Shown here: piece after piece, positions 11,898-52,658 of the stretch
Layout: every line of letters begins with the position of its first letter
Numbering within the stretch: position 1 is the stretch's first letter
Origin: an uncultured Mucilaginibacter sp.
Lineage (GTDB): Bacteria; Bacteroidota; Bacteroidia; Sphingobacteriales; Sphingobacteriaceae
DNA length: 57,886 bases
Direction: 5' to 3'
NCBI GenBank assembly: GCA_964657585.1
Contig: CAZZVY010000001.1
Coordinates: 1 to 57,886, forward strand
Notes under the pieces: generated by a model
Told to the model about the DNA's origin: nothing
What the model saw: the letters and a program-made list of their open reading frames with translations, nothing else
Databases searched by the model: none
Translations under genes and position numbers: made by a program

Positions 11898-11949
11898 AAC
11901 CTGCTTATACAACAACTGCAATAACCCTGTATTTAGTCACGGCTGGTAA
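11890..11949 (+). pseudogene. 5' stub of a Cys/His-containing gene truncated by the IS
   Basis: MPKTCLYNNCNNPVFSHG runs into the left TIR and stops there. Confidence 0.55.
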
Positions 11950-11985
11950 ATAGGTATAAAGCTATCCTGACCCAAATTTAATTTG

Positions 11986-12041
11986 TTTGACTAACTGACG
12001 AGGCTATTAGAGCCGAAACCGCACCAGCGGTCTTAGTCGAA
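11986..12041 (+). ncRNA. Hammerhead ribozyme, type I
   Basis: Stem I GACUAA/UUAGUC; core CUGACGA (11995-12001); stem II GGCU-auuag-AGCC; GAAA; stem III CCGC-acca-GCGG; cleavage predicted after GUC at C12032. Confidence 0.92.
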
Positions 12042-12184
12042 AGATATAACGTTTAGTAATAACGTACAATTACTGCGACCGTGAAACGTGTACACGGATG
12101 AACCCAAATAGGGGGATTGATTGACAGATAACTAAGAATATTGCATGGTTGATCCGCAAATATTAGTTTACCTGTAATAACGTA
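12033..12184 (+). ncRNA. Predicted 152-nt RNA excised by the flanking hammerheads, function unknown
   Basis: Lies exactly between the two predicted cleavage sites; hairpins AGUAAU/AUUACU and CCGUG/CACGG, plus a long stem at 12124-12175. Confidence 0.6.
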
Positions 12185-12231
12185 TAAGTATGTGCGTACT
12201 TACTGATGAGAATAAAAATTCGAAACGTTAT
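12177..12231 (+). ncRNA. Hammerhead ribozyme, type III
   Basis: Stem III AUAACGU/ACGUUAU; cleavage predicted after GUA at A12184; stem I UAAGUA-ugugcg-UACUUA; core CUGAUGA (12203-12209); stem II GAAU-aaaa-AUUC; GAAA. Confidence 0.9.
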
Positions 12232-12295
12232 AATTAATTTAATAAATTATTTAAAACATGTAATCAATTGGCACACAGTTTGTTATGTTTTTTAT

Positions 12296-13225
12296 ATGAA
12301 AAAAGATAAGCATTTTAGAACAATACTTGACTTAGCTAAGGTTTTCCCCGATGAGCGTTCATGTCACGAATATTTTGCAGAGCGACGCTGGGAGGATGGT
12401 GTTATAAATTGTCCGCATTCACAGTGTGATGGTGAACGGGTTTATGTATATAAAGACGGCATACGTTATAAATGCTGTAAATGTAAGCGCGTCTTTACAG
12501 CTAAAACTGGTACTTTTATGGAGGCCAGTAAATTGCCATCCATTAAGTGGATTTATGCGATGTATCTTTTTCTACACAAAAAAGGAATTAGCAGTTTACA
12601 GCTTGGTAAGGATATTGGCGTTCAGCAAAAAACTGCATGGTTTGTATTGCAGCGTTTGCGCGTAGCTTTAGGAAATGAAGTTGATGAGACATTAAGTGGT
12701 ATTGTAGAAATTGACGAGTGTTTTGTTGGCGGAAAATCGAGATTTAAGCATAAAAACAAGCGGCCTAAATATAATCCCGGTCGTGGCTGGTCTGATAAAA
12801 CTCCTGTATATGGAATGCTGCAAAGAGGTGGCAAACTTAAAGCTGTAGTTGTAACAGATGTGCTGATGCTAACCTTAAAAAAAGCATCTTTAGATCACAT
12901 TGAGAGAGGCACAACCTTATATGGTGACGGCTTTAACGGATATAAAGGCTTAACACTATCCTATAACGTTCAGTGCGTAGATCATGGCAAGGGATTTTAT
13001 GTAGACGGCGATTGCCACACCAATACATTAGAGGGTGCATGGAGCCAGTTTAAAAAGACGCTGGTAGCGACGTATCATAAAACAACAAGAAAACATTTGC
13101 AGGGATATGTAAATGAATTTACATTTAGGTATAACTATCGTAATTTGCACGTTCAGGCACAAATAAATCAGATTATTGAAAATATGGAGTGCCGGTTAAA
13201 GTTAAAAGATTTAAAAGCAGCATAA
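12296..13225 (+). CDS. tnp: IS1595-family (ISXO2-like) DDE transposase
   Basis: Zn ribbon CPHSQC/YKCCKC, HTH, VEIDE, YGDG, HTNTLEGAW, YVNEFTFRYN; start placed at 12296 because the ATG at 12206 lies in the ribozyme core. Confidence 0.93.
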   Translation: MKKDKHFRTILDLAKVFPDERSCHEYFAERRWEDGVINCPHSQCDGERVYVYKDGIRYKCCKCKRVFTAKTGTFMEASKLPSIKWIYAMYLFLHKKGISSLQLGKDIGVQQKTAWFVLQRLRVALGNEVDETLSGIVEIDECFVGGKSRFKHKNKRPKYNPGRGWSDKTPVYGMLQRGGKLKAVVVTDVLMLTLKKASLDHIERGTTLYGDGFNGYKGLTLSYNVQCVDHGKGFYVDGDCHTNTLEGAWSQFKKTLVATYHKTTRKHLQGYVNEFTFRYNYRNLHVQAQINQIIENMECRLKLKDLKAA

Positions 13226-13226
13226 A

Positions 13227-13364
13227 ATGGCAAAAATAACAGCTAAAGTTAAACCCAAGCCAAAAACAAAAAAGGCTTCAACTCCCGCGGCTGCTAATAA
13301 AAGCAGCGGAAACAAGCGTTTAGATAACGCCTTTAGTAAAGCCTTAAAAAAGGGTACTAAGTAG
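13227..13364 (+). CDS. Small Lys-rich protein (45 aa) directly after the transposase, not in the ORF track
   Basis: MAKITAKVKPKPKTKKASTPAAANKSSGNKRLDNAFSKALKKGTK. Confidence 0.5.
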   Translation: MAKITAKVKPKPKTKKASTPAAANKSSGNKRLDNAFSKALKKGTK

Positions 13365-13375
13365 TTTTTTTTAAT

Positions 13376-13936
13376 TCATTTATGAATTATTATATTTTGA
13401 GCATTTACACCGCAACCTCTTAAAAGTACCGTTATGAGTATTCCTATCACCAGCACAATAACACCAGCTATTATTGTTGTCCATATGGAACTGGAGGACT
13501 TGGTTTTATGGATTGCTTTATCGCTAACAGTAGGGTTGCTCATAGGGCTTTTGTTAGCTAAAATGGTATTATCAACTGAAGAATGACTGTGTGCAATAAT
13601 TATATTATTTGCGTTTGTCAAATCATATGAAGACTTATTTTTATCTTCATTATCTCGTAAATATTGCTCGCCATCTGGTGTAATCATAGCTTTAATTATA
13701 ACCTCATCAAGTTCTTTGTATTTACCCTCAAACGTAGTTGTAAGGTTATAATAACCACCGTTTGTCTTAATAAAACCATTGTGATCTAAATGCTCAATGC
13801 AATTTTGAAATTTAAGTTTATCCTCATATGTGGTTAATTTGTTTAAAAAATGAGTTTTAATATCTATCTGTACAGAGGTTGCATCATGGTTTTTTAAATA
13901 TTCCAAAACAATAAACCTTAAAGGTTTTTCTTCCAT
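13376..13936 (-). CDS. IS passenger: winged-helix-like N-terminus with C-terminal TM helix
   Basis: L...GFI...ITPDGEQYL wing pattern; hydrophobic C-terminal helix. Confidence 0.6.
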   Translation of the reverse strand: MEEKPLRFIVLEYLKNHDATSVQIDIKTHFLNKLTTYEDKLKFQNCIEHLDHNGFIKTNGGYYNLTTTFEGKYKELDEVIIKAMITPDGEQYLRDNEDKNKSSYDLTNANNIIIAHSHSSVDNTILANKSPMSNPTVSDKAIHKTKSSSSIWTTIIAGVIVLVIGILITVLLRGCGVNAQNIIIHK

Positions 13937-14023: not shown

Positions 14024-14239
14024 TTACTTTTCGCAGTATCCGCAAGCATGTCTGTGGTATTTGTGTATGGCATCGTAAATCGATACGCGTACTTCTTTAC
14101 CCTTACAATTCCGAAGACCTTTGCAGTATAAAGATGCATGGTATGCATGCGAATAATTACCCATACAAAGCCAAACACTGTCTTGTTTAGATTGATAAGT
14201 GGTTACTAATAACGATATAGATAAGATAAAGGTTTTCAT
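14024..14239 (-). CDS. IS passenger: small secreted Cys/His metal-binding protein
   Basis: Signal-like N-terminus; V.LC...YH...C.GL.NC...R.ACGYC. Confidence 0.65.
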   Translation of the reverse strand: MKTFILSISLLVTTYQSKQDSVWLCMGNYSHAYHASLYCKGLRNCKGKEVRVSIYDAIHKYHRHACGYCEK

Positions 14240-14714
14240 ATTGGCCTAATAGATAATAAAAATTGCGTATCGTTAATTGTATTTGAATTGGTTTTTAATT
14301 CGTATCTCATATTTCGGCTTTTATAGCAAATATTAATGACAGTATCGTTGATCGCAACAGGTTCTTTTTTATAATTAGATTGCTTAAAAGAATTTAATAT
14401 GGATTGGTATATCTTTTCATCATAGAAATGATAATCAAACTCATATTCTAAATCTCCTTTATTATAAATAGTGTACCAGGCTAACGCCTTATCTTTATTA
14501 TAACTATCGCCAAAATATCCCCAGATTAAACTTGTAAATCCATATTCATTTGGTTGTGTTTTTCCATGAAATTTCCAACCTTTTTTTATAAGTAATGAGT
14601 TTATATTAACAAGTGGTTTATTTGGAATATTTAATAGTTCAGAAACGGTCAAATTTTGGCAATATGACGCCGTGCATAAAAGGCATAGGACTGCCAGTGG
14701 GAAGAAGATTTTCA
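14236..14714 (-). CDS. IS passenger: secreted protein
   Basis: MKIFFPLAVLCLLCTASYCQ signal peptide; start reassigned from 14736. Confidence 0.65.
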
Positions 14715-14720
14715 TTTTTT

Positions 14721-14871
14721 TTGTCGTGTGTGGCAATAAATATGGCGTGGACTAATATATCTGCGCTGCCACGGGACACGACTCCCTACCATGCACAAAG
14801 AAATAGCCACGCCATGACGGCGTACTAAAGCTTTGTATTGCATGGTGCTAAATTGTCGTGTAATTGGCAGC
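14721..14871 (-). promoter_or_regulatory. C4/CI-like alternative-pairing RNA element, copy 1
   Basis: Nested inverted repeats GCTGCCA/TGGCAGC, ACACGAC/GTCGTGT and ACCATGCA/TGCATGGT; competing stem ATGGCGTGG/CCACGCCAT. Confidence 0.55.
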
Positions 14872-15112: not shown

Positions 15113-15294
15113 AAAAAATTCTTAGCGTAATATTTGCTTTAAATGTAAGGAGAGTATCTTATATTATCAAGTGGTATAAATACCTTAATTTTAAACTATA
15201 ATGTTTTATTATATTGTTGCTTTTTTAGAAAAAACCTTCAACTTAAAGTGTTTCTTTAAGTCAATAAAATAGGATAGATTTATACCTAATTACC

Positions 15295-29459: not shown

Positions 29460-32400
29460 TTATTGTAAGAATCCGAAAAGAGTTATTGTAACATTTCCAA
29501 CGCCACCTGTTGTAATTTGATAGTTAACAACGCCCCCCGCAGGCACAGCTAAACTCATGCCAGTGCTTGTAAAGAAAAACACTTTATTAACAGCATTTAA
29601 TCCGGCTATAACCGTGCTTGCAAATATATCACCAGGCGTTGTTGTATAAACATTGGCGGTATGTCCCGTTGTAACGCCTGTTAATGCCCGTACAGCCACT
29701 TTTGTTACCGTAAGTATCTTTCCTGTAGGTACGGTATATAAAACCGTTGTGGCTACTGTTGCTGAATTTACAAGGGTAACTACTGAAAGTATATTATCAG
29801 CAGGAATTGGATTTGTAATGTCTAAATTACTTCCATCTGAAACCAAGTCTACAGCGGTATTTTGAATAGATAAAACAACACTTGAACCGCCGTCAATTAA
29901 CCCCGATGCAGGTGTTACAGTTACCGTATTTGCTGTTGCATCGGTTTTTTTAATTACGTATGAACCAATAACAGTTGTTGGAACGGTGACTATTATATTG
30001 CCTGAAGATGCGTTGGCAAGTATCGTTATATTTTGGCCTGCTATAGATGGGATTTGCACCGATCCGACAATAGGTACTACCTGTTGTAATGGGCTGAATA
30101 AAGCCGCGGCCTTTGTCCCGACACCAGCAATATCAAAGTTTCCCGTAAATGGGGCATTAAATTTATAACTATATCCTAAAACAGCCTGCTGAACGATATA
30201 AGATATACTATACGCGCCAATATCTGGGGTTAAGAAAAATGGATTGCCGGTATAATCAAAAGGTGCTGCACCATTTATACTGCCAGCCGCTTTAACAGGA
30301 CTTGTTGACAACGGTATGAAATCAGTTGCTTTGGTTGGTGTTGTTTCATTCGTTAAAAGCGGATCGGTGTTTATTCCTGCTGTATCGTATCCTGCTCCCT
30401 GCCATAATGTCCATGTTGAATAAAGATTACATATAGGCTGTCCGTTAGGGTTCCAAACATCGTTGTTGTTTATGGTAAGGTTTGTTGGTAACGCCGATAA
30501 CCCATTTGCTGATATAAAATAAACAGGAATATTTGAAGCGGTAGGAACCTGATTGATTAAAATATTGTTTTGTATGATTATCTGATCTGCCTGTTGTTCG
30601 TTTACAATGGTCACCCCGTTAAATTGCTGTGAATCGGGCCCTACTAAAATATTTGTTCCGGTAGAAGCTGAACCGCTTATAATAAACGTGTTGTTGTAAA
30701 TAGTCGCGTATTGAGCCGCTTTGGTGTACCCTGCCGCCCCACCCTGTAACGATGAAGAAAAAAACAGGTTATCAAATGCCTGCGCTTTTGCAGTAGAACT
30801 TCCCTTTGTAAGTTTTAGTAAAAACCCTATACTTCCGCCGCTTTGTATGTTCTGATAAATCTTACCCCTTGTTACGCAAAATAAGGCAAGCATGTGCGTT
30901 TCAATCGTGGTGTTGGTAGTTGATACGGTATTTTTATAGAGCAGGCAATCAGTGATACCATAAGGGCCTGTAAGGAACCCAAATAATAGAGCATGTGTCG
31001 TGTCGGTAGTCCACGATGTGCCGTTTGCAGAGGTTAATATGCTTCCTGCGGTCACTGTAGTGTTTTCTTGTATCAACACATAATTTGTCCCGTCAATAGT
31101 CCCAGTATAGCTTAAAACAAGGTGAACTTTTGTCGATGGGTTTACCTTTGTCCTGTTGGCGAAGTTAAACTGAAAAGGCTGTGCACTCGTTGTAAGTGAA
31201 CTGGCTGAAAGAACAGTACTCGCTGTTTCTACAAGTGTTCCCGGTACACCTGCATTATCAAGGTAGCAAGAACAGTTTATAGTCCCGGTAGGAGAACCTG
31301 TTTTTAATAAGTTCACGATAAATGAACCTAAGTAAGAATAATGACTATAGGTTATCGCTGTTGTGGTTAAAAATTGGTCAACATAGGTATTTGCCGAAGT
31401 ATCGCCTAAGTTTTTATTCCCAGTTGTTGTAACGATATTTTGAACGTCGGTATGAAACCCGTCGTTACCTACCGCTATAGAGTGCTGACCGCCGTTATTT
31501 ACAACCGTGTTATTATAGATAACGGCAGCACCAAATCCATTGTTAATATAAAGCGGGTCAACATTTAAGGTCGTGCTTGAATTCGTTAATGTAGCACCGC
31601 TTACACTTGGGCACGCTGTATTTTCATTAGCACCAAACCACATTCCGTTTGTGGTATTGGTTCCCATTGTAAAGGTGAAGTTGGTTAAAACAGCTGCGGT
31701 AGGTATTGATAAGGTAGCATCTGAAAGCGGAAAAGTTACCCCGCCTAAAGTGTTGGTAATATCAAAGCTATTCATCGTTATCTGACCAACGATGCCGGCA
31801 AACTGTACAGGGAAATATGTACCAGCGGGAAACGTAGCCCTGCTTCCGTCGCTTCCTGCTGTTAGGGTAAAGTTTCCGGACGTGGTTGCAGCCACGCCAA
31901 AAACAATTGCTGATAAATTGGTAGTTGTATTAGAGTATGTCCCTCCCTTTAACGTAACATTGGTTCCTGATCCCGTGGTGAACATTTGCTGCGCAGATGA
32001 CCATGTGCTCCTGTCTACGGTCACATTTCCATTAGCACCGCCTACTATAAAAAGTTGCCCCGCAAACGTTGAATCGTTGGTATATTGATTGATAAAATAA
32101 TTTGATGTTGTACCGCCTGTAGCAATATTTAAAAAAGCGGCAAATGTAGTAGCGTTCACACCTTTGCACCGAGTGTAAGTAAAATTGCCTGTGCTATGCG
32201 GGGTTATACATGACTTTGATGTTGTTCCCTGGCAGTCAAGAACTAAGTCAATTAAGTACCCCATTGTTGCTGACGCGTCAGATGAATTTATCACCCTTGC
32301 TCCGGATGAAGATTGAATTACAACAAAATAACTTGCGGTGTACGCAGGATCGGCTTGTATGGTATTCTTTTTTGCACCTAAGTCAAGGTATCCGGAACCG

Positions 32401-32600
32401 CTTGTTTCAACATAAGGATGATTAGCTGATGTTGCGGACGTGCTTGTCGGATTGATAATACAGGTATCGCCCGTTGTGGCCATTACAGAAACGGCATGAG
32501 CAATAGTTAAAAACGGCGTGGTAATTGAAGTACCGTTATTGGTATCAACTCCAAGAGAATACCCGTTAAGGGCTAAATTTGAAACGTAGTAAGTTGCCAT
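29460..32600 (-). CDS. Tailspike/depolymerase-like parallel beta-helix protein
   Basis: TYYVS...G.D.N.G.S...PFLTI..A start; Asn/Thr-rich rungs; PDIGAY. Confidence 0.7.
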   Translation of the reverse strand: MATYYVSNLALNGYSLGVDTNNGTSITTPFLTIAHAVSVMATTGDTCIINPTSTSATSANHPYVETSGSGYLDLGAKKNTIQADPAYTASYFVVIQSSSGARVINSSDASATMGYLIDLVLDCQGTTSKSCITPHSTGNFTYTRCKGVNATTFAAFLNIATGGTTSNYFINQYTNDSTFAGQLFIVGGANGNVTVDRSTWSSAQQMFTTGSGTNVTLKGGTYSNTTTNLSAIVFGVAATTSGNFTLTAGSDGSRATFPAGTYFPVQFAGIVGQITMNSFDITNTLGGVTFPLSDATLSIPTAAVLTNFTFTMGTNTTNGMWFGANENTACPSVSGATLTNSSTTLNVDPLYINNGFGAAVIYNNTVVNNGGQHSIAVGNDGFHTDVQNIVTTTGNKNLGDTSANTYVDQFLTTTAITYSHYSYLGSFIVNLLKTGSPTGTINCSCYLDNAGVPGTLVETASTVLSASSLTTSAQPFQFNFANRTKVNPSTKVHLVLSYTGTIDGTNYVLIQENTTVTAGSILTSANGTSWTTDTTHALLFGFLTGPYGITDCLLYKNTVSTTNTTIETHMLALFCVTRGKIYQNIQSGGSIGFLLKLTKGSSTAKAQAFDNLFFSSSLQGGAAGYTKAAQYATIYNNTFIISGSASTGTNILVGPDSQQFNGVTIVNEQQADQIIIQNNILINQVPTASNIPVYFISANGLSALPTNLTINNNDVWNPNGQPICNLYSTWTLWQGAGYDTAGINTDPLLTNETTPTKATDFIPLSTSPVKAAGSINGAAPFDYTGNPFFLTPDIGAYSISYIVQQAVLGYSYKFNAPFTGNFDIAGVGTKAAALFSPLQQVVPIVGSVQIPSIAGQNITILANASSGNIIVTVPTTVIGSYVIKKTDATANTVTVTPASGLIDGGSSVVLSIQNTAVDLVSDGSNLDITNPIPADNILSVVTLVNSATVATTVLYTVPTGKILTVTKVAVRALTGVTTGHTANVYTTTPGDIFASTVIAGLNAVNKVFFFTSTGMSLAVPAGGVVNYQITTGGVGNVTITLFGFLQ

Positions 32601-38790: not shown

Positions 38791-41700
38791 TTATTCATCC
38801 CAATTAGCTATATCATAGCCGCCTGTTTGGGCATTGTGATATTTGGAAAGTATCTTACTTTTACTAACTTTTGATGCTATTGATTTTAATCGTGTTCTTA
38901 TTTTTTTCTGCTCCTTTGGTTTATCGGCAAGTTTAGCTATTTCCAATTTCATTCTTTTGGCAGCATCAGACTTCATAAAGTCATCATAAAATTTTTGCCT
39001 TTCCTGTACCTGTTTGTTAGATAGTTTTTTAGTTTCTTCGCCTACCTGTATTTTGTTAAATTCACGCTCCGGTTCTTTTATATCCAAATTCTTTCTTAAT
39101 CCCGGTATTCCGCTTTCAATTCCCTGCCAAACACCATGCGGAGTTCTTTTAACCGGATCGCCATTTTCATCCTTATCTTCACGTTGCGCCTCCTGTGTAA
39201 TTACCGATGGCACAATTAACCCACGTAAAAAGTCACCTGCAAACTGGCTTGCGTTATTGGAACTTTCCAACCCGCGTATAACTTGTTTTGGAGTTTCGTA
39301 AAATGGTGTGCTTTCTGCCATGTCTGTCGCTGTCGCTACAACAGTTTCCCCACTTGTAGCACCTTTGATAAAGCTACCGCCATAACTATCGGCAGCACGC
39401 CTTATAGTGGCTCCTAACTGCATAATAGTTAGCAATGGTGTGTGTGTCAGGAAATGGGGAACCTCTACACCGAATAACTTTACATCTCCTGCGTTTATAT
39501 CGCCGTCTTTTCTTTTCCCACCGGGAACACGGAACCCGCCAAATGCTTGCGGATTAAAATAGCCCAACGCCAATAATCCTGCACCCAATGATTGTTTTTT
39601 CATTACACGAAGTACATAATCAGCTTGTCGTGGAGATAGTTTATCTATCCCTCTTGCCATTAAAAATAAAGCCTTAGTTGCACCTAAAACCGGGGTATAT
39701 TGCGTTTTTTCAATAAGAAAGTTTGTTGGTACGCGCACAATAGGGAATAACACTTTAAGCACATCTGCCCCTATCTTGCCTGATTTACCAAACTTATCTT
39801 CTTTAGCGGTTTCAAGAGTCCTGATGATTGATTTATAAGACTTTGTGGCTAAATTATCCGCCATAAATATCTGCCGATTTGCATCTTCCAATGCTTCTTT
39901 TCCGATTTGTAACTGTACAAAAGGACTATCAGTGTCAACCCCGTGTTCCTGCGCGTATTTGGTACGCAAAATAACACTTCGCCTAAACTCATTTTGTTTG
40001 GCAAACTCTTTTTCAGCAGCGTGAATATTACCGGCTAAATCAAGTATTCTGTCAATATCAAAATGTTCTTTTTTATCGCCAAAAGTAGTATCTAAATTAT
40101 CAAGTTTTCCCTGAAACTTCTTCTTAACCTCATCAATAGTATTAGCGTCCCAAACCGTTTTTAACGCTTTCCATTCGGCGTTTAAATTAAAATCGTGTCC
40201 CTCACGCGGTGCTTTTGCGGCTATACGTGAAAGAATTGGTATACGCCTTACTGCTGACCCTGCAAGTTCATGTATGGGCTGGCCTATTATCCTGTACATA
40301 GAAGCCATTCCTACTTTGACCGCTCCGGCAATATTTAACAACAATTCAGCCCTGCGGTATTTTAAAGCTTTATCGAGCACTTTTTCAGTTGTGCTCCTGT
40401 TGGCAAGCCTGTCTTTTTCAAGTTCTGCCTGATAATCATCTTTTATGCGTTGCAGGTTGGCTGTTGCTGTTATTGCTTCGGGGTCAAGTTCAATAGGTGT
40501 TCTTACGTTTTTCGTAAAATCCCTATTCGCTATTCTTCGCTGATATTCTGCTATCTGATTGGCGGTACGGGTTTTTAACGATTTTAAAACAGATGCTCTT
40601 TTGGCTTTATCAATTTCATCTTTATTTATTTCAGCAAGTTGCTTTTTAAGTTCATCGCGCCTTTCCTTTAGCTTTAATGTTTCCGCATCCGGAGTAGCAG
40701 GTGTTCCTTTTTCCGGTTTTTCACCTGTGGCTATTTGTTTACTTAATGCTTCAATTTCATTGGTCAAACGTGTTTTAGTAGCCCTTGCTGTTATGTCGGG
40801 CTGCTCTAAATCCTTTATCTGCTTACGCAATTCTTCAATCTCTTTACTGATTGCAGGTTTTGCTTTTTCAGGTGCTTTATATTGTTTCGCTTCTAAATCT
40901 TCAAGTTTAGATATGAGTTTAGCCTGCTTCCTTAATTCATCTAATTTAGCCTGTATTTCAGACTTTGTTTGCGGCTCGTGTTCTGCTCCGTAGCCACTTA
41001 ATGCGTCGCGTACAGCCCTTTTATCAAGCCCCTCAAAAGCATCTTTTAGGTCGTCATGTATTTTATCAACAAGGTCATCTAATTTATCAATTCCTTCAGC
41101 AATATATGACTTAGCCAATTTTGCCAATTCAGGTGAAATAGCGGCCAGTTCCTTAAATTGCTGTGCAAAAGGAATAGAAGATGTAAGCGTTTGTGTTTTA
41201 CGCTGCGCCTTTAGTTTATTACGTATATCCTGAATAAGATCATCACGCTGACGCTTGCGTTGTTCTGCTGTTTTACTTTTTCGCTCGCGCTTTACCTGTT
41301 TTTTAAGGTCGTCAAGTTTTTCCTGCTCTACCCTCTTGCGTTCTTTTTCTTCAAGTTCCGCTATTTTAGCCTCAAGTTCTTTTTGCTTTTTTTGGTAATC
41401 ATCATGTATTTTGCGAATATCGTCGCGTTCTTCAGGCGTTAAATCACGACCCAACGCAGACCGCTTACGCAACTCCATTCGCGCCAATGAAAAATCGTTT
41501 TTTGCAGCTAATTGACGCGATTGCAGTGAACGACCTGACATGGTTCCGCTTTTACGGTCTATATCGTCAAGTTCCTGTAGTTTGGCTTGTTGCTCATCAA
41601 TTTTAGGGTCAATCTGGTCTGTTGGCTCACCGTCAACAATACGCTGGTGCAGCTTGTCAATCTCATTTTCAATAATTAAACGTTTATGTAATAAAATTGC

Positions 41701-44082
41701 ATTTTCTACATCATTAGGCGCAAAAGGCTTTTGGTTGAATCTGGTTATAATTTTATCGGCAGCATCAGGGTCTTTATCAATTTCTGACATTGCCTCATCC
41801 CATGTTTCCTTGTTGGATTTACTTTGTTCGCTAAATAACGGTGGCAATCCGCGTTTTTCACGCGATTTATCAACCGCATCATTATTACGCGATGTTATGC
41901 CAAATTCGTTAGAATTAGAGGGTGAAGTTTCATCCACACCCTCTTTTAAATTCACATTGCTTTCTTTGGCGGCCAGCCCTTCTTCTTCCCGGTTGACGCT
42001 TTCTTCTTTTTGTCCGCTTTCGGCTTCTTTACCTTCACTGGTGCTGTTACTGTTTTCATTGTCTGTTGGATTAGTGTTTATGTTATTTTTAATTGTTTCA
42101 TCATTATTTTCAGCAAGTGTGCCCGTTTGTCCTGCTTCATCTGCCTGTTGTTCAGCAGGTACTTCCTGATTTGATTGGGTTTGTTCATTATTGGGTTTTT
42201 CTACTTTTTCAAGTTCGTAACGACTTTTGGTTATTTTAACAGGTTTTTCACCGGGAATATTCTTTGTATAAACATCCTTTTCGGGGTCATAGGAATAAGT
42301 TATTTTATCCTTGCTGCCACGCACTATATTTTGAAGTTTATCATTTGCCTGATCAATTTTGTCAGTAAGCAACTGTTCCTGTGGTGATAAGATAGTATTT
42401 ACCGCGGGGTCTTGCGATTCCCTGTCTGCTTTTACCTTATCAAGTTGTGTTTGCAGTTCATTCCTGTTTTGAACTATATCAACAGCTTTGGCTACCTGAC
42501 TATGATGAATACCACGTGGTAACGACTTCGCTATTTTGCCTATTTCATCAATATGCTGTAATGAAGCGTCTAACTGTGGCTGTGTAAAATCCTGCGGGTT
42601 TCGCTGCGCGTGTTCTGTAAAATCCTTTTTTACCTGTTCGATGTTCTTATCGGAAGGATCGCGCATTAAACCTTCTACCGCTGTATTTTTATAATGGCTA
42701 TAAGGCGTAAGTTTTGAGGCATCCCCAATACTTCCTAATGCACCGAATAAAGGCGCCGCTTTTAAGGTTTCGCTTTCCTGGTCAGCCAAATTTCCTAAGT
42801 TTTCATTAAACACAGGTTTATCACTGACTGCATCTACTCCTTTTTTCAAGGCAAAGTTGGCAATATTTAATCCTGATAAGTCAACTACCGCTTTACGTGT
42901 ATTTTTAAGGTAATTAACACCTGCTTGTGCCGCTTTATCGCCCCATTCCTTAGCGCCGTTTTGTAATAATTCTGAAAATGCTTTTGGGGTTAAATCTTTA
43001 CCTGCTGCGTCTTTTATAGCATTTGCTGTAATAGAGGTAACCACATCGTCTTTTAATGTGCCTGATAGCGAATTGTATAACCCATGACCCAAATCACCCA
43101 TCAGTAACCCATTTACCGCACCTGAACCTAATATAAAAGCATTTTTGACAATAGGATTAACGTCTTTTACCTTATCCATTATCTCTTTACCTTGCCCAAG
43201 CCCTTGCAGATAAAAAGTAGCACCGCCAGTGCTTTCGCCAGCAACAGCAGATGGCAGAAATTCAGCTAATCCGCCTAAATTTGACATTACCTTGCTATCC
43301 TCAGCCCTTGATTGGTCGCCCTTAGATAAAAAGTCAGTGGCTTTATCGGCTTTATCAAAAGCCTTGTCGATATTAGGGTCATCACCGCTTATTTCGCCGT
43401 GCTGCGCGTTTACACCTAATGTAGCAAGATATGAAGCACCTTTGGCGACCTGTAAGGCTCCCTTACTTGCTTTTGATCCGAGATATTTAATACCATTCAC
43501 AAGTTTGCCAGTTGGCGTTTGTGAGAAGTTATAATCGTTGGTTTCCTGCTGTGTAGGTGCGCTTAACCTATCGTTTGAGTGCGCTGCTGCCGATAAATCA
43601 GATGCTTTATATAAGTCTTGTTTATCCTGTGGAGATAGCTTATCTAAATACGGCTGCAATTGCTTGTTTAAGGCATCCTGGCGCATTTGTTTTTGCTGCC
43701 TTACTTGTTTATCCTGTTCTTGAATGTTTGCAGCCAGTGGGCTATTAGGCTGTACAAAAGATGGTATATTGCTATTTTGGGAACTTTGGGAATTGTCCAA
43801 ACCATTTGATGATAAGTCGAATGTATTGTTTGAAACGGGTGCTGAAACTTTTTTTTTTAATCCCAACGCGGTTGAGAACTGATTAAAGTCTTGTGGTAAT
43901 CCTTTTACGCTTTCATTGCCCAATAAAGCATCGTGAAATGTTTTTGCCTTTGCAGGGTCTTGCATAGCTGCTTTAAACTTATCATAACTATCAGGCAAGC
44001 CCTTTATATTTTCATTGGTACGCAACGAATTATAAAAAGCTTGTAATTTATCAGGCGGTTGCTGTGTTTCGGCTTCTTCCAT
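38791..44082 (-). CDS. Large internal virion/DNA ejection protein (1763 aa)
   Basis: Helical and coiled-coil, with Gly/Ala hydrophobic patches; third gene of a small-medium-large trio after the tail genes. Confidence 0.65.
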   Translation of the reverse strand: MEEAETQQPPDKLQAFYNSLRTNENIKGLPDSYDKFKAAMQDPAKAKTFHDALLGNESVKGLPQDFNQFSTALGLKKKVSAPVSNNTFDLSSNGLDNSQSSQNSNIPSFVQPNSPLAANIQEQDKQVRQQKQMRQDALNKQLQPYLDKLSPQDKQDLYKASDLSAAAHSNDRLSAPTQQETNDYNFSQTPTGKLVNGIKYLGSKASKGALQVAKGASYLATLGVNAQHGEISGDDPNIDKAFDKADKATDFLSKGDQSRAEDSKVMSNLGGLAEFLPSAVAGESTGGATFYLQGLGQGKEIMDKVKDVNPIVKNAFILGSGAVNGLLMGDLGHGLYNSLSGTLKDDVVTSITANAIKDAAGKDLTPKAFSELLQNGAKEWGDKAAQAGVNYLKNTRKAVVDLSGLNIANFALKKGVDAVSDKPVFNENLGNLADQESETLKAAPLFGALGSIGDASKLTPYSHYKNTAVEGLMRDPSDKNIEQVKKDFTEHAQRNPQDFTQPQLDASLQHIDEIGKIAKSLPRGIHHSQVAKAVDIVQNRNELQTQLDKVKADRESQDPAVNTILSPQEQLLTDKIDQANDKLQNIVRGSKDKITYSYDPEKDVYTKNIPGEKPVKITKSRYELEKVEKPNNEQTQSNQEVPAEQQADEAGQTGTLAENNDETIKNNINTNPTDNENSNSTSEGKEAESGQKEESVNREEEGLAAKESNVNLKEGVDETSPSNSNEFGITSRNNDAVDKSREKRGLPPLFSEQSKSNKETWDEAMSEIDKDPDAADKIITRFNQKPFAPNDVENAILLHKRLIIENEIDKLHQRIVDGEPTDQIDPKIDEQQAKLQELDDIDRKSGTMSGRSLQSRQLAAKNDFSLARMELRKRSALGRDLTPEERDDIRKIHDDYQKKQKELEAKIAELEEKERKRVEQEKLDDLKKQVKRERKSKTAEQRKRQRDDLIQDIRNKLKAQRKTQTLTSSIPFAQQFKELAAISPELAKLAKSYIAEGIDKLDDLVDKIHDDLKDAFEGLDKRAVRDALSGYGAEHEPQTKSEIQAKLDELRKQAKLISKLEDLEAKQYKAPEKAKPAISKEIEELRKQIKDLEQPDITARATKTRLTNEIEALSKQIATGEKPEKGTPATPDAETLKLKERRDELKKQLAEINKDEIDKAKRASVLKSLKTRTANQIAEYQRRIANRDFTKNVRTPIELDPEAITATANLQRIKDDYQAELEKDRLANRSTTEKVLDKALKYRRAELLLNIAGAVKVGMASMYRIIGQPIHELAGSAVRRIPILSRIAAKAPREGHDFNLNAEWKALKTVWDANTIDEVKKKFQGKLDNLDTTFGDKKEHFDIDRILDLAGNIHAAEKEFAKQNEFRRSVILRTKYAQEHGVDTDSPFVQLQIGKEALEDANRQIFMADNLATKSYKSIIRTLETAKEDKFGKSGKIGADVLKVLFPIVRVPTNFLIEKTQYTPVLGATKALFLMARGIDKLSPRQADYVLRVMKKQSLGAGLLALGYFNPQAFGGFRVPGGKRKDGDINAGDVKLFGVEVPHFLTHTPLLTIMQLGATIRRAADSYGGSFIKGATSGETVVATATDMAESTPFYETPKQVIRGLESSNNASQFAGDFLRGLIVPSVITQEAQREDKDENGDPVKRTPHGVWQGIESGIPGLRKNLDIKEPEREFNKIQVGEETKKLSNKQVQERQKFYDDFMKSDAAKRMKLEIAKLADKPKEQKKIRTRLKSIASKVSKSKILSKYHNAQTGGYDIANWDE

Positions 44083-47746: not shown

Positions 47747-48688
47747 TTATCTTGACCCAATTAATGAGTGTCGCGAAACAATATTTATACTATACAACCT
47801 TAGTGGCTGATTTGATGCAATAGTTTGCAGGGTTATAACCAAATAATTACCTCTTAGCACATCGCCGTTTTCAATATCACCTGTGTTTAAGTCACGCAGA
47901 AAATTAGCAGATAACACACCCTCTATTGTTTCTACCTCTACTGAACTATTGCTGTCACTAAGGAAATCCTTTATAAAATCTATTTCAGCCAATGCGCTTA
48001 CTTGCCCTAAAGATGTAGAAATACCGTTATTTCCGGTAACCATTAACTGGTTGCTTTGGATTGATAATGATTGAAAAGTTTTTACAATAGCAGGTGAAGC
48101 ATTCATCACGTATTGTATGATGCTTGGGAAAACAGTTCCATAAAACGTATTCCTGTCGTTACCACCATTTTCATGCAACCAAAACCTGCCCTGATATGCG
48201 GTTATCATATCTTCATATAGCGACCATCCATAATCAGGGTAAAAAGTCCTGTTATCGACCCAAACCTTATCTTTTGCATTGTAGGCCAGTGTCTGCCCTA
48301 CAGGCATTGTTATATCTTGTATGTAAACCGCAGTTATTTGACAATTTGCATTAGAATATACGTTTAATGACCCGTTACTTGTGGGGCTTAGTGTTTCGAC
48401 ATACAATCCAGGTGCTGTTTGCTGTGCCCCGTTACTTCCCGGCGATTGAAGTTGAACATAGCCGCCTGAAATAGATAAAACAGCCCATGATATACTATAA
48501 ATATGCCCCGATAGTAACGCATAAATTAAAAGCGTTTCACTGCCGCTATTACAAGACGAATGCTGTGCATTGACACCGTCATTTACCCAACTTGTATCAT
48601 TTGCAGCCGTTATTAAATTTACCGTTATTGGTACGTTTTCAACCTGTGAGTAACTCATATTATTACATAGTGAAAGGGTAAATATCAA
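47747..48688 (-). CDS. Probable C-terminal part of the tail stabilization/nozzle protein (start probably at 48658)
   Basis: TLAYN...W...FYP, NTFYG, KTFQSL, GDVLRGNY motifs. Confidence 0.5.
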   Translation of the reverse strand: MIFTLSLCNNMSYSQVENVPITVNLITAANDTSWVNDGVNAQHSSCNSGSETLLIYALLSGHIYSISWAVLSISGGYVQLQSPGSNGAQQTAPGLYVETLSPTSNGSLNVYSNANCQITAVYIQDITMPVGQTLAYNAKDKVWVDNRTFYPDYGWSLYEDMITAYQGRFWLHENGGNDRNTFYGTVFPSIIQYVMNASPAIVKTFQSLSIQSNQLMVTGNNGISTSLGQVSALAEIDFIKDFLSDSNSSVEVETIEGVLSANFLRDLNTGDIENGDVLRGNYLVITLQTIASNQPLRLYSINIVSRHSLIGSR

Positions 48689-51600
48689 TCGTAGTTGGGT
48701 TGTTCACCGTCCCTGTAAATGTAAGGTAGTAAGTACCGGGGTAATTAACCATGACAGAGTTTATTAAGGTGCCGTTCACTGCCAGTCCTAAATAAGTATG
48801 GTTAATTTGGGCCGCATTACCTGTTACCACAACTGCAACGGTTGTTCCGCTGCCGCCAGTCGTTGTATATGAAGCGTATATCTTTTGTCCGTTTGTTAAA
48901 GGAAAACCAGTAAAAGCAGGCGTACCTGTTGTTGTCCCATTTGTAACACTTGAAATATTTAAGTTATATTGGCTATATACGCTATAATTACCGGCACCTG
49001 CTGCTACTGTGGTCGCTGAAAAAGTTCCGCTTGTGCCTGAAATAGTTAAAGTAGCTGATGTTGTCGTACTATTTGAACCAGACGTGGTTACTTCTACCTG
49101 CACTGTGTCGTTTGGATTTACTGTCCCTGCTGTGTTTACAAAGGCACCTCCGTTCACACTATAATAGCCGCCTGTGATACTTATTGGAACAGGGATAGTG
49201 TTCCCGGTAACGCTAATGTAGTTTGATACTACGGTTGCCGATAGTGCCTGATTTGTTAGTGGTGTAAAAGCAAAAGCATTAACTACCGTTCCACCCGCTG
49301 GCCATACAAGGCAGTTATTCACTGTTTTTACGCCCTGTGGCGTGTTAAAACTAAACGAGGCAACATCACTGCCAACATAATTAGTTGTTGGCGTATAGGT
49401 CACTATTCCGGTTTCTGAATTGTATGATGCGGTGCAATGTGCGCCATTAGGGGTTGCTGTTACATCTGTTCCTGCAATATTATAATTGTTTCCTGCCTGC
49501 CATACTCCGGGTGTAAACGGATAAAGTATAATTATACCGCCTTGCGCCTGAATGCATAATATAACTTCTTCATAAAAGTCATTATAGTATTGATGCATTT
49601 TGGCTCCTGTTGCATAAGCCAGCTTAATGATATTCTTAAATAACTGTGTGTTTTTACCTGATATTGGCACTATCCCACCTAAACTTATTTCCATAGGAAT
49701 AGCTTTTAACGGGTCAATAAAATACCCAACATCGTACCGTTTGCAAAAACTTTCTTTTGCTGTGCCTATTCCTATTCCGCGAGGGTCATACCTGCCGTTG
49801 TTTAATAGTTTTTCACTTATGGATTGCCCTGTTATCTGATCGTTAAGAACGGTATAGGCGAAGTTTACAGGAATATAAAACGTGTTTCGTTCCTGTATGG
49901 CGATTAAAATATCGCCGCGCTGCCAAAGTATTTGTATAGCACCGAACGAGGATGATGTCTGCCCGTTTCCATCTCCGTAAATGTTTGCGGGATAAAACCT
50001 GTTTAACCCGTTATTCTTGCTTCCTAAAATATACGGCTCTGATGTTATTATAGATGCTTTTCTTTCTGCATTTTCAAGTTCATCATAGTAACTTCTTACC
50101 CTGCCAAATGAATGATAAGGCGAAAGGTAAAAATCACTGTAGTTTAAATCAGTTGCCAAAACATTGATTTGAGGATAGCTATAAGGCTTTAACGCATCCG
50201 GGAATTGCCTTGTTTTATAATACGCCCCGCCGTCATTAATAACTATACTTAGTGTATTATGTAAACCATTGGTTATCGTGAATTGCTGACCAACTTCATA
50301 CCAAACAGTTTCGTTATTTGTTGCTGAAGCGGCCTGCACTGTCGGTTCCGGGCTGTATAGCCGCAGGAAGATGTTTCGGGCATTTATTTGCGCGCCGTTA
50401 TAGAATATATTGCCGCCTGAATAGGTTAAAGCAGATGAATTTTCAACCTTTACCAAATATGTTCCTGCATCATATCCTAAAACAGCAAGATCAATGCATG
50501 GATTGTTAAAATAATTTATAACTCCGGTACTGTCTATCCAGTAATGAAGCGTACACCTGTCGCCCGCTGCATAATCATAAACTAAATTTGTGTTTACGCT
50601 TTCTGCGCTGTATTCCGCGTTTAAAAGGGCCAGTGAATTTAACGAGAAAACAAGTATACCGCCGGCGTTGCCGATATTACCGAAGTCTTTAGGCAGAACC
50701 TGATAGTATTGCCCCGCACCCGCGCCGCCTGATGTGCCGCCAATATCTACAATATAGTCTCCTGTATTATAAGTTGCGTCATTCCCTAAATTGGTATAAT
50801 GCGCTGTATCGGTAGGACTGCATGGTGTTGTTATCTGGTAAACGTCGCCAACATTACCTGAATTTATTGCAAGTGCCGGTGAGTTTCCCTTTGCGTCCCA
50901 ACCGCCTTTATAACTTATCGCGGTTGCTATAGAATCAAGAACCTTTGTAATTGGCGGTTTTGTTATTAACACCTGATAACCTACTGCACCAACCGGCGCA
51001 TTTGCGGTATTTATCTGTAAAATCAATTCTGTAGCGTTGCCGAGTTGCTGCGCATAAGACGGCGTATTTATTTCATAAGTGTTATCTGTACACAAAGGGA
51101 AATACCTGCCCTTATAGTCAAAATATGCTATTGCAACCTGATATGGCGCATTATCTAATACGGTCGGAATAGAATTAGCTACGCTTGCGCCTGCGAAGTA
51201 CAGTTCAACGCTAAAAGAGGTTAATTCAAAGTAAGGCTGTCCAGTGAAATTAATCTGATAACCACCGCCATAAGCTACGTAACTGCCTCCAATATTAGCG
51301 GCTATGGACATTACCACCGATAATAAATTACCATCCTGCGCAGCGGGAACTGTGTAAGAGTAGTTTAACGTGTTTGCTGCGTTCCTTATGTCAGAAAGTA
51401 TGATCGTAATTACATCATTGGTATGCGGTGTTCCTTTTAAATTTATAGAAATATACCGCCTGTGGTTACCTGCCCCACTGCCTGTTGCACCGGGGAAACT
51501 GCCATTGGTCATTAACGGGTTTGTAAGCGTTCCTGCGGGTATACCTATGTTGGGGTTATAACCAACAGCTCCTAATGTTATTTGCGTCGCAGGACGGCCA

Positions 51601-52658
51601 TAAAGCGTTTTAAAGTCGCCCAGCGCGATAAGGTTACCATTTATATTTTCTCCTGCATTTGACGGCCATATATAGTCATAAGGCAAGTCCGTTTCGGTTG
51701 CGGAAATAGGGGTGTTTATGGTATTATTGTAAAAAGCGAAAGAGTAAATGTTTGTGGCAGGGTCGTATGCTTCATGTATTTCTGCTGCAACATTTACTGT
51801 AGTGTTGGGTAACGAAAGAACGTAAGCGTTATTGACTGATTTTATCATTACAAAATCACCGCTATCATCAAACTGGCACCCGATATTGGTAGTCATTACC
51901 CGTATTGAGCCGATATTTACCGAAACGATGATATAGTTGTTTTGACCTACGTTTTGCCCTAAAGTTGGGGTATTTTCCTGATAGGGAACAATCCTTTTGC
52001 TTCGTGTGCTACACGCTGAATAATTATAATCAAAACCGACATATTGTACTATAAATTGCGGTAATTTGCTGTAAAGATAGTTAGCGGGCTGACCGGGATC
52101 ATTACCATATACCCCTGTTGGGGGGATCATGCACTGCGGTTTTAACAATGATAAATCTTCCCAAAGCAGTGTTGAACCGTAGCCACCGGATGCAAGGGTA
52201 TTAAGATTGAAATAAATTACTTCCAAATCTTTTCCCCATGCTACCACAAAGGTTTTATTTAACAATACAGCCCTTACTTCATTTTGTGGATTAAGAGGCA
52301 GAAAAGGAACACCTCCGCTATTGGTTAAATCAGTATAAAGTATCTGTAATTGCTTCGTAGATGAGGTATATTGAACGATCTGACAATTGCCTGCACTGTT
52401 CCACCTGAAACCAACAATAACGCCTATATCGTCAAATTTACCGCCGCCTATAATATTGTTTAGCCCCGGTAAAAGTGTCTGAATGATTGATACGGTACTT
52501 TCAAGGTTTGTGCCATAGGTTTGTTCGCTTTGTCCCGTACCTGTAAACCTAAGGTTTTGTGCGAATATATGCTCATTTGCCTTTAATACCTCATAAGCGT
52601 CATCGGTATTCATAGATGCGCCTGAAAAGGTTTTTAAATTATTTATAGGTTGTGACAT
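48663..52658 (-). CDS. Tail stabilization/nozzle protein (P22 gp10/crAss muzzle-like) with C-terminal Ig-like domains
   Basis: F.G..MNTD....L...E...A.N.R start; N.L.LGDF; YQVAIAYFDYKGR; S.PY..GSKNNGLNRF; FGAIQ.L. Confidence 0.65.
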   Translation of the reverse strand: MSQPINNLKTFSGASMNTDDAYEVLKANEHIFAQNLRFTGTGQSEQTYGTNLESTVSIIQTLLPGLNNIIGGGKFDDIGVIVGFRWNSAGNCQIVQYTSSTKQLQILYTDLTNSGGVPFLPLNPQNEVRAVLLNKTFVVAWGKDLEVIYFNLNTLASGGYGSTLLWEDLSLLKPQCMIPPTGVYGNDPGQPANYLYSKLPQFIVQYVGFDYNYSACSTRSKRIVPYQENTPTLGQNVGQNNYIIVSVNIGSIRVMTTNIGCQFDDSGDFVMIKSVNNAYVLSLPNTTVNVAAEIHEAYDPATNIYSFAFYNNTINTPISATETDLPYDYIWPSNAGENINGNLIALGDFKTLYGRPATQITLGAVGYNPNIGIPAGTLTNPLMTNGSFPGATGSGAGNHRRYISINLKGTPHTNDVITIILSDIRNAANTLNYSYTVPAAQDGNLLSVVMSIAANIGGSYVAYGGGYQINFTGQPYFELTSFSVELYFAGASVANSIPTVLDNAPYQVAIAYFDYKGRYFPLCTDNTYEINTPSYAQQLGNATELILQINTANAPVGAVGYQVLITKPPITKVLDSIATAISYKGGWDAKGNSPALAINSGNVGDVYQITTPCSPTDTAHYTNLGNDATYNTGDYIVDIGGTSGGAGAGQYYQVLPKDFGNIGNAGGILVFSLNSLALLNAEYSAESVNTNLVYDYAAGDRCTLHYWIDSTGVINYFNNPCIDLAVLGYDAGTYLVKVENSSALTYSGGNIFYNGAQINARNIFLRLYSPEPTVQAASATNNETVWYEVGQQFTITNGLHNTLSIVINDGGAYYKTRQFPDALKPYSYPQINVLATDLNYSDFYLSPYHSFGRVRSYYDELENAERKASIITSEPYILGSKNNGLNRFYPANIYGDGNGQTSSSFGAIQILWQRGDILIAIQERNTFYIPVNFAYTVLNDQITGQSISEKLLNNGRYDPRGIGIGTAKESFCKRYDVGYFIDPLKAIPMEISLGGIVPISGKNTQLFKNIIKLAYATGAKMHQYYNDFYEEVILCIQAQGGIIILYPFTPGVWQAGNNYNIAGTDVTATPNGAHCTASYNSETGIVTYTPTTNYVGSDVASFSFNTPQGVKTVNNCLVWPAGGTVVNAFAFTPLTNQALSATVVSNYISVTGNTIPVPISITGGYYSVNGGAFVNTAGTVNPNDTVQVEVTTSGSNSTTTSATLTISGTSGTFSATTVAAGAGNYSVYSQYNLNISSVTNGTTTGTPAFTGFPLTNGQKIYASYTTTGGSGTTVAVVVTGNAAQINHTYLGLAVNGTLINSVMVNYPGTYYLTFTGTVNNPTTIDIYPFTM

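Follow-up and report, generated by a model that had tools for sequence, protein, structure and literature searches.

In a phage contig of an uncultured Mucilaginibacter sp., two hammerhead ribozyme motifs lie inside the left end of an IS1595-family transposon and enclose a conserved non-coding RNA. On balance we slightly favour the reading that the two ribozymes free a linear RNA of 152 nt whose core likely acts in trans, independently of transposition. The whole stretch of DNA analysed, 57,886 nucleotides of contig CAZZVY010000001.1, is referred to here as the window. With a covariance model the core of this RNA was found in 16 copies, spread over 15 of the genus's 229 genomes (14 of 228 beyond the source genome), with a single copy in 14 of the 15 carriers; in six cases the core sits immediately within the left repeat of an IS1595 element, and the other ten copies stand alone. 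Judged by comparison of these copies, the core is a structured, pseudoknotted RNA under strong selection.

That the window belongs to a phage follows from its proteins, 15 of the 35 tested matching PHROGs families, with tail, head, endolysin and recombination functions among them; the very large phage ORFs at 38791-44082, 48663-52658 and 29460-32600 (1763, 1331 and 1046 aa) have no PHROGs match. The IS1595 element within it is intact. It measures 3350 bp, from a left terminal inverted repeat at 11945..11967 (plus strand) to a right repeat at 15272..15294 (minus strand), the two identical at 21 of 23 positions, and encodes a 309-aa DDE transposase (12296..13225, plus strand) with a zinc ribbon and invariant D140, D211 and E246. 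The protein matches the Pfam DDE_Tnp_IS1595 and zinc-ribbon domains at 122 and 29 bits and NCBIfam NF033547 at 174.6 bits (cut-off 75). Between cassette and transposase lies a promoter box (12269..12282, plus strand) that is sigma-54-like as a sequence match to the consensus. Downstream of the transposase is a small basic ORF of 45 aa with an SG[DN]..[FL]D motif (13227..13364, plus strand). An ORF of this kind, which has no family match, was seen behind the transposase at 15 of the 18 loci inspected, whether or not a cassette is present (it was noted in the window and at L002-L015, L065, L066 and L144-L147). Three cargo genes follow on the opposite strand: one of 186 aa with a C-terminal hydrophobic stretch (13376..13936) and no Pfam or PADLOC family, a Cys/His-rich one of 71 aa (14024..14239), and one of about 160 aa with a signal-peptide-like start (14236..14736), the last two likewise having no family match. 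The first cargo gene of these elements is often a protein of 125-205 aa with such a C-terminal stretch (the window, G051, G102, G091, G088, L144 and L005), and several of these proteins are related to one another; a defence role is possible, and the window copy has no PADLOC match.

All five cassette-bearing relatives examined have repeats of the same type flanked by 8-bp target-site duplications, the length usual in the IS1595 family, and the window copy has no target-site duplication. Since its left flank resembles the start of one gene and its right flank the end of another, an adjacent deletion would account for the missing duplication. The G091 element (L400) appears to be inserted in, and to split, a serine-recombinase-like gene, again with an 8-bp duplication. 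The closest named relatives of the transposase are from Mucilaginibacter, and a cassette of this kind also occurs at L063, a named M. pedocola locus; a single-protein locus search in viral contigs gave no match. Elsewhere in the family, the transposases at L011, L013 and L015, which form one subclade, have 20-25 extra residues behind the region of the first catalytic aspartate, giving a total of 326-334 aa, and those at L012 and L028 contain a frameshift or stop.

The upstream motif is a type I hammerhead (11986..12041, plus strand) with stems of 9, 4 and 4 bp, an intact core and the cleavage triplet GUC, predicted to cut after 12032. Both on its own (z -2.86) and in the full precursor, where its stems have pair probabilities of 0.69-1.0, it comes out as the fold of lowest energy, and in four relatives the stems differ in sequence yet pairing is kept. 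The downstream motif is a type III hammerhead (12177..12231, plus strand) with stems of 7-8, 4 and 6 bp, all core bases and the triplet GUA, predicted to cut after 12184; it is A/U-rich and weak when folded alone (z -0.97). The first-pass annotation had proposed these two ribozymes, in the sense of the transposase and between it and the left repeat, and we found the cores, NUH triplets and three stems all in place. It had also put the catalytic bodies outside the intervening 152 nt, which holds for the catalytic cores; the excised RNA nonetheless retains one stem strand per ribozyme. A three-stem descriptor matched these two sites and no others on either strand of the genome (3,730,791 bases), and gave one match on 200 dinucleotide shuffles of the window. 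The check that had been suggested, a search with the Rfam hammerhead models, did not call either motif: over the whole window nothing reached the gathering score, and in a 291-base search the two scored 18.8 bits (E 0.16) and 18.7 bits (E 0.83), with the 5′ hammerhead scoring weakly to RAGATH-1-hammerhead. Against RF00008, the type III hammerhead of a relative, G106, reaches 39.5 bits (E 1e-5). Loop II of the window's 5′ hammerhead is able to form 6 bp with the leader; pairing of 5-6 bp is possible in three of six 5′ hammerheads, a figure that carries no chance control.

Cleavage at the downstream site may be less straightforward. In a nested-only model of the precursor, an alternative fold, in which the 3′ hammerhead is captured by pairing with upstream near-repeats, is better by 5.6 kcal/mol and the pair probability of the type III hammerhead falls to 0. 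When a pseudoknot near the 5′ end of the RNA is mimicked the probability rises to about 0.5, and it is then that the hammerhead becomes the best fold; in the window this ribozyme may therefore be a poor cutter or a switchable one. The pseudoknot in question is an optional module at 12049..12074 (plus strand), a 6-bp hairpin whose loop can pair over 5 bp with 12049-12053, and by eye a similar module is present in G051, G102 and G165. The substrate strand of the 3′ ribozyme is duplicated in a direct repeat of 11 nt and, in part, in a third copy (12046-12052, 12056-12066 and 12174-12184), which creates decoy pairings, possibly with an alternative cut near 12053. In the folding model, the module would shield these decoy copies.

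Between the two predicted cuts lies an RNA of 152 nt (12033..12184, plus strand). Hammerhead cleavage leaves 5′-OH and 2′,3′-cyclic phosphate ends, and the orientation of the ribozymes predicts such ends in all six two-ribozyme copies. These are the ends that a host RtcB ligase could join, and a small circle, made by a natural counterpart of the engineered twin-ribozyme circularisation design, is the alternative that survives best, albeit as an unlikely one. RtcB is present in nine of the ten other carrier genomes tested; it was not found in the source genome, in an assembly that is 96% complete. The ends of the excised RNA are neither conserved in sequence nor paired with each other, which leads us to favour a linear product, with circularisation possible. 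At the new 5′ end there is instead a separate hairpin of 4-7 bp in five of seven copies examined; it is weak in the window, where the terminal segment (12033..12049, plus strand) competes with hammerhead stem I, and absent in G088. Predicted products of the six two-ribozyme copies are 152, 184, 133, 133, 120 and 178 nt long, with twister cut sites taken from the consensus, and ten of the 16 copies have no detectable 5′ ribozyme at all. Of the linear or circular RNA envisaged at first pass, then, it is the linear form that these observations favour. In the case of clustered prophage hammerheads, which flank protein genes of varying identity, circular products could not be detected (Perreault et al., 2011, PMC3088659).

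The payload core (12076..12175, plus strand) consists of a 2-bp pseudoknot, a 5-bp P2, a 3-bp P3 with a 5-nt loop, and a long arm, P4, with internal loops; the covariance model matches the window at 12073-12176 with 103.5 bits. In the model alignment, in which five rows are shifted by one column in P2, 90.7% of cells are paired against 27-46% in slid-register controls, and once the copies are registered on anchors, each position of P2, P3 and P4 is paired in 12 to 16 of the 16. The pseudoknot, formed by the 5′ end of the core and the P2 loop, pairs in all 16 copies in three forms (nine, five and two copies). Double changes occur at 11 of 19 pairs, and none of 500 shuffles came as high. The count overstates independent events, as the copies are kin in three clusters at 86-98% identity; the independent events per pair perhaps number two to five at most. 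G182, outside the training set of the model, fits the fold with new compensatory changes. Selection on the core is also apparent where ribozymes are missing: the ribozyme-less copies of G030 and G077 share 97% identity over the core, whereas their flanks are 50-55% identical (random baseline 52%) and the neighbouring gene 70%. A second small pseudoknot-like 5′ hairpin is an optional module of 12 of the 16 copies and is absent from the window.

With its nested pseudoknot, its many invariant unpaired bases and its persistence in copies that lack flanking ribozymes, the core could itself be catalytic, a ribozyme released free that belongs to an undescribed class and cleaves itself, cleaves in trans or ligates, and new classes have been found beside known ones (PMC6765202, PMC10085705). 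We regard this as unlikely, as the same features also fit aptamers and no Rfam ribozyme model matches. Indeed the core matches none of 4227 Rfam families (in the window at E<=10, at 15 loci at E<=0.5-1). The hairpin ribozyme was considered on account of a likeness of P4 to its loop B. The invariants of loops A and B in that ribozyme are G8, A22-A24, C25, A38 and G+1 (PMC8216279); the required run A22-A23-A24-C25 is not conserved in the core, and RF00173 has no match at the core in five genomes at E<=10. Resemblances to RNase P, pistol, 5S loop E and ToxI likewise found no Rfam support.

The ribozymes around the core vary far more than the core does. At the 3′ side, two of the 16 copies have a type III hammerhead and seven a type-P1 twister, and in seven no ribozyme was detected; the twister matches score 34-52 bits (E 2e-9 to 6e-4), all below the Rfam gathering score of 67.2. 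At the 5′ side a hammerhead is complete in five copies, has a defective stem II in G165 and is lacking in ten. The core ends 1-8 nt ahead of the 3′ ribozyme, and seven of the ten standalone copies have no ribozyme. From these alignments, the position of the cut is kept while the class of ribozyme is swapped, and ribozymes are swappable and dispensable in a way that the core is not. Swapping of ribozyme classes marks sites where cleavage is needed (PMC10085705), and the tolerance of twisters is the subject of PMC11662667, the main text of which does not mention the genus. In G102, an otherwise complete element, there is no upstream hammerhead; its 5′ slot (L244:1605-1705, minus strand) holds an unrelated sequence of about 100 nt followed by the same 5′-terminal hairpin. 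This sequence is a candidate for a new self-cleaving motif or a decayed ribozyme. It matches nothing in Rfam and folds no better than shuffles, and a search of the 229 genomes for homologs gave nothing more than short chance matches.

The first-pass annotation had suggested that the RNA regulates the transposase or serves as its cofactor. Either the cuts would uncouple the gene from read-in transcription or the RNA itself would be a cofactor or inhibitor, and the position of the cassette lends this some weight, for it lies directly inside the left repeat in all six elements and ends 50-110 nt before the transposase start in five of them. Distribution argues the other way, and we consider such a role quite improbable. 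Descriptor matches were found at six of 222 transposase loci, two of the six having the same sequence, always ahead of the transposase gene and reading in the same direction as it, and the spacers at these loci share a core of about 100 nt. Among 21 transposases of the same subclade, 15 have no cassette (two of these with less than 140 nt of upstream sequence). The cassette is lacking at L003 and L144, whose transposases are 63% and 66% identical to the window's and for which 1.5 and 3 kb upstream were inspected. In a tree of 31 loci chosen from the 222, the cassette is present in six rows and its distribution takes four changes, at least two of them forced by well-supported branches. In G091 an opposite-strand cargo gene separates cassette and transposase, and the ten standalone copies, with no transposase nearby, are conserved all the same. 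As for insulation, one ribozyme would be enough, although insulation of the transposase may arise as a side effect. The RNA is thus likely to be cargo rather than a transposase cofactor, given that closer relatives lack the cassette and that a gene intervenes in G091, and given also the mosaic nature of the window's core, whose first 48 nt are identical to standalone G077 and G197 and whose P4 tip is of the other type. Such a mixture of two types points to exchange between mobile and chromosomal copies; in the tree of the core one of 13 branches is well supported, which gives no direction of transfer. A pure cargo model does not account for the fixed position inside the left repeat, the point at which read-in transcription enters.

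Two further proposals made from the window's sequence fared differently. That an IS1595 element carries a natural cassette of the ribozyme-RNA-ribozyme kind is borne out by the relatives, which keep the ribozyme pair and a conserved spacer upstream of homologous transposases; this speaks against a one-off capture. An antitoxin RNA of the type III toxin-antitoxin kind finds no support, as there is no repeat array, the cargo has no PADLOC match and the downstream genes vary. Promoter-like boxes, which are consensus matches counted with no chance control, follow the 3′ ribozyme in five of the six elements and precede six of the ten standalone cores; a scan for sigma-70 promoters and terminators gave no excess over shuffles. 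The cassette-less loci L005 and L145 have in common another conserved region within the left repeat, some 350 nt ahead of the transposase. It contains a small ORF on the opposite strand and has no Rfam match, and the complementary words that recur in it suggest another structured RNA.

Core copies occupy at least five unrelated kinds of site. By sequence inspection, the standalone ones adjoin AraC-like stress clusters, a capsule locus, and amidohydrolase or oxyR-like genes. Three of them (L402, L404 and L406, in G182, G169 and G093) lie within 3 kb of a pair of genes for a sensor kinase and a sigma-54-type response regulator, and two of the three have an upstream sigma-54-like box. Searches with the core covered the genus and samples of the family, class, phylum and viral contigs, the metagenome and all-genome scans having used the transposase as query. 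A strict core pattern matched, among 401 family genomes, only inside the genus; the covariance model gave no match in 150 phylum genomes and one weak match in 150 family genomes, rejected because it lay in coding sequence and lacked the motifs, and a core pattern gave none in 290 class genomes. Viral contigs yielded six chance matches to one pattern, 120 loci with a pattern that was too loose to discriminate and none with a two-gap pattern, and blastn against phage and plasmid records returned nothing meaningful. This scatter over unrelated sites, together with the mosaic core, would fit a selfish, non-autonomous element that resembles retrozymes and relies on a foreign reverse transcriptase for its copying. 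That reading is very improbable, and membership of the retrozymes was rejected, since the two ribozymes differ, carriers with one exception hold a single copy, no terminal repeats surround the standalone copies, and ribozymes are lost while the core is kept. Least probable of all is that the core, as a riboswitch aptamer, controls the ribozyme or gene downstream of it. The close spacing of core and 3′ ribozyme and the AraC-like genes downstream of four standalone copies might speak for this; against it, the core has no conserved overlap with ribozyme stems, the downstream genes differ or, in six of the 16 copies, are convergent, and in three standalone copies a twister separates core and gene.

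We therefore return to a freed linear RNA with a trans-acting core. The sequence itself contains the two motifs, the inverted repeats and a conserved core that covaries, and ribozymes placed inside the left end of the element would cut any transcript that passes. A transcript arising by read-in or from a promoter near the repeat would be cut co-transcriptionally, very probably at the 5′ site and quite probably at the 3′ site of the window copy, with the hairpin at the new 5′ end displacing the upstream ribozyme arm. It is rather likely that the product stays linear, protected from exonucleases by the hairpin at its 5′-OH end and by the cyclic phosphate at its 3′ end. With somewhat more confidence, the ribozymes can be regarded as interchangeable processing parts that would make the RNA expressible wherever the element lands, while chromosomal copies with a promoter of their own could lose them. 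The chance that the core, once folded, serves as decoy or scaffold by binding a host protein or a small molecule is about even. The next downstream gene is on the opposite strand in six of the 16 copies, which argues against a role in cis, and from its anatomy the core is likely to be a stable small RNA that binds protein or ligand. A bolder version we think unlikely: bacterial DNA transposons would carry, in a plug-and-play expression cassette, an RNA of undescribed class, catalytic or regulatory, that is set free and matured by interchangeable hammerheads or twisters and possibly circularised; the payload would be a new ribozyme class and the G102 slot would hold another new self-cleaving motif.

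The roles of bacterial self-cleaving ribozymes besides glmS are described as largely elusive (PMC6765202). Here the comparative data show what is cut out, and that the position of the cut rather than the class of ribozyme is conserved, so that the purpose of the ribozymes becomes directly testable with a 250-nt transcript and cultured soil Bacteroidota; if the reading is true, bacterial self-cleaving RNAs would gain a concrete purpose. The analysis also adds an RNA family that is new, compact and pseudoknotted and that evolves under strong selection. It presents a non-coding RNA that serves as insertion-sequence cargo and moves between chromosome, transposon and phage, and it singles out one slot, in G102, that may hold a new self-cleaving motif. 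The literature searched, in which coverage of subscription papers and supplements is thin, describes neither ribozymes in IS1595 elements nor this RNA, and the motif may already be listed in supplementary material to the 2015 paper on ribozyme discovery or to later surveys of motifs.

Several known systems share features with the cassette. Clustered prophage hammerheads (PMC3088659) also lie close together in a phage context with predicted transcript processing; they flank protein genes, whereas here a conserved, structured non-coding RNA is flanked, inside an insertion sequence. Retrozymes and other retroelements with ribozymes are mobile elements that likewise free a non-coding RNA out of a co-transcript; they are eukaryotic, carry a single ribozyme repeated in LTRs and are reverse-transcribed (PMC6765202); the present cassette is bacterial, has two different ribozymes and sits, in single copy, on a DDE DNA transposon. 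RAGATH motifs in Rfam are similarly structured RNAs near bacterial twister and hammerhead ribozymes, although the payload matches neither these nor any other Rfam family. The element itself resembles IS1595 transposons with passenger genes in its zinc-ribbon and DDE transposase, its repeats of about 23 bp, the 8-bp duplications of its relatives and its cargo, and differs from the usual passenger-gene elements in that part of the cargo is a ribozyme-processed RNA. In engineered ribozyme-RNA-ribozyme and Tornado cassettes, flanking ribozymes give defined ends from any promoter. As in these, the 5′ ribozyme here is predicted to cut at its 3′ side and the 3′ ribozyme at its 5′ side; unlike them, the cassette is natural and has no end-pairing ligation stem. 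We conclude that the cassette is a variant of clustered bacterial ribozymes that would work like the engineered ribozyme-RNA-ribozyme design, and that its payload, on comparative grounds, is a previously uncatalogued, conserved pseudoknotted RNA, a transposon cargo carried into phage.
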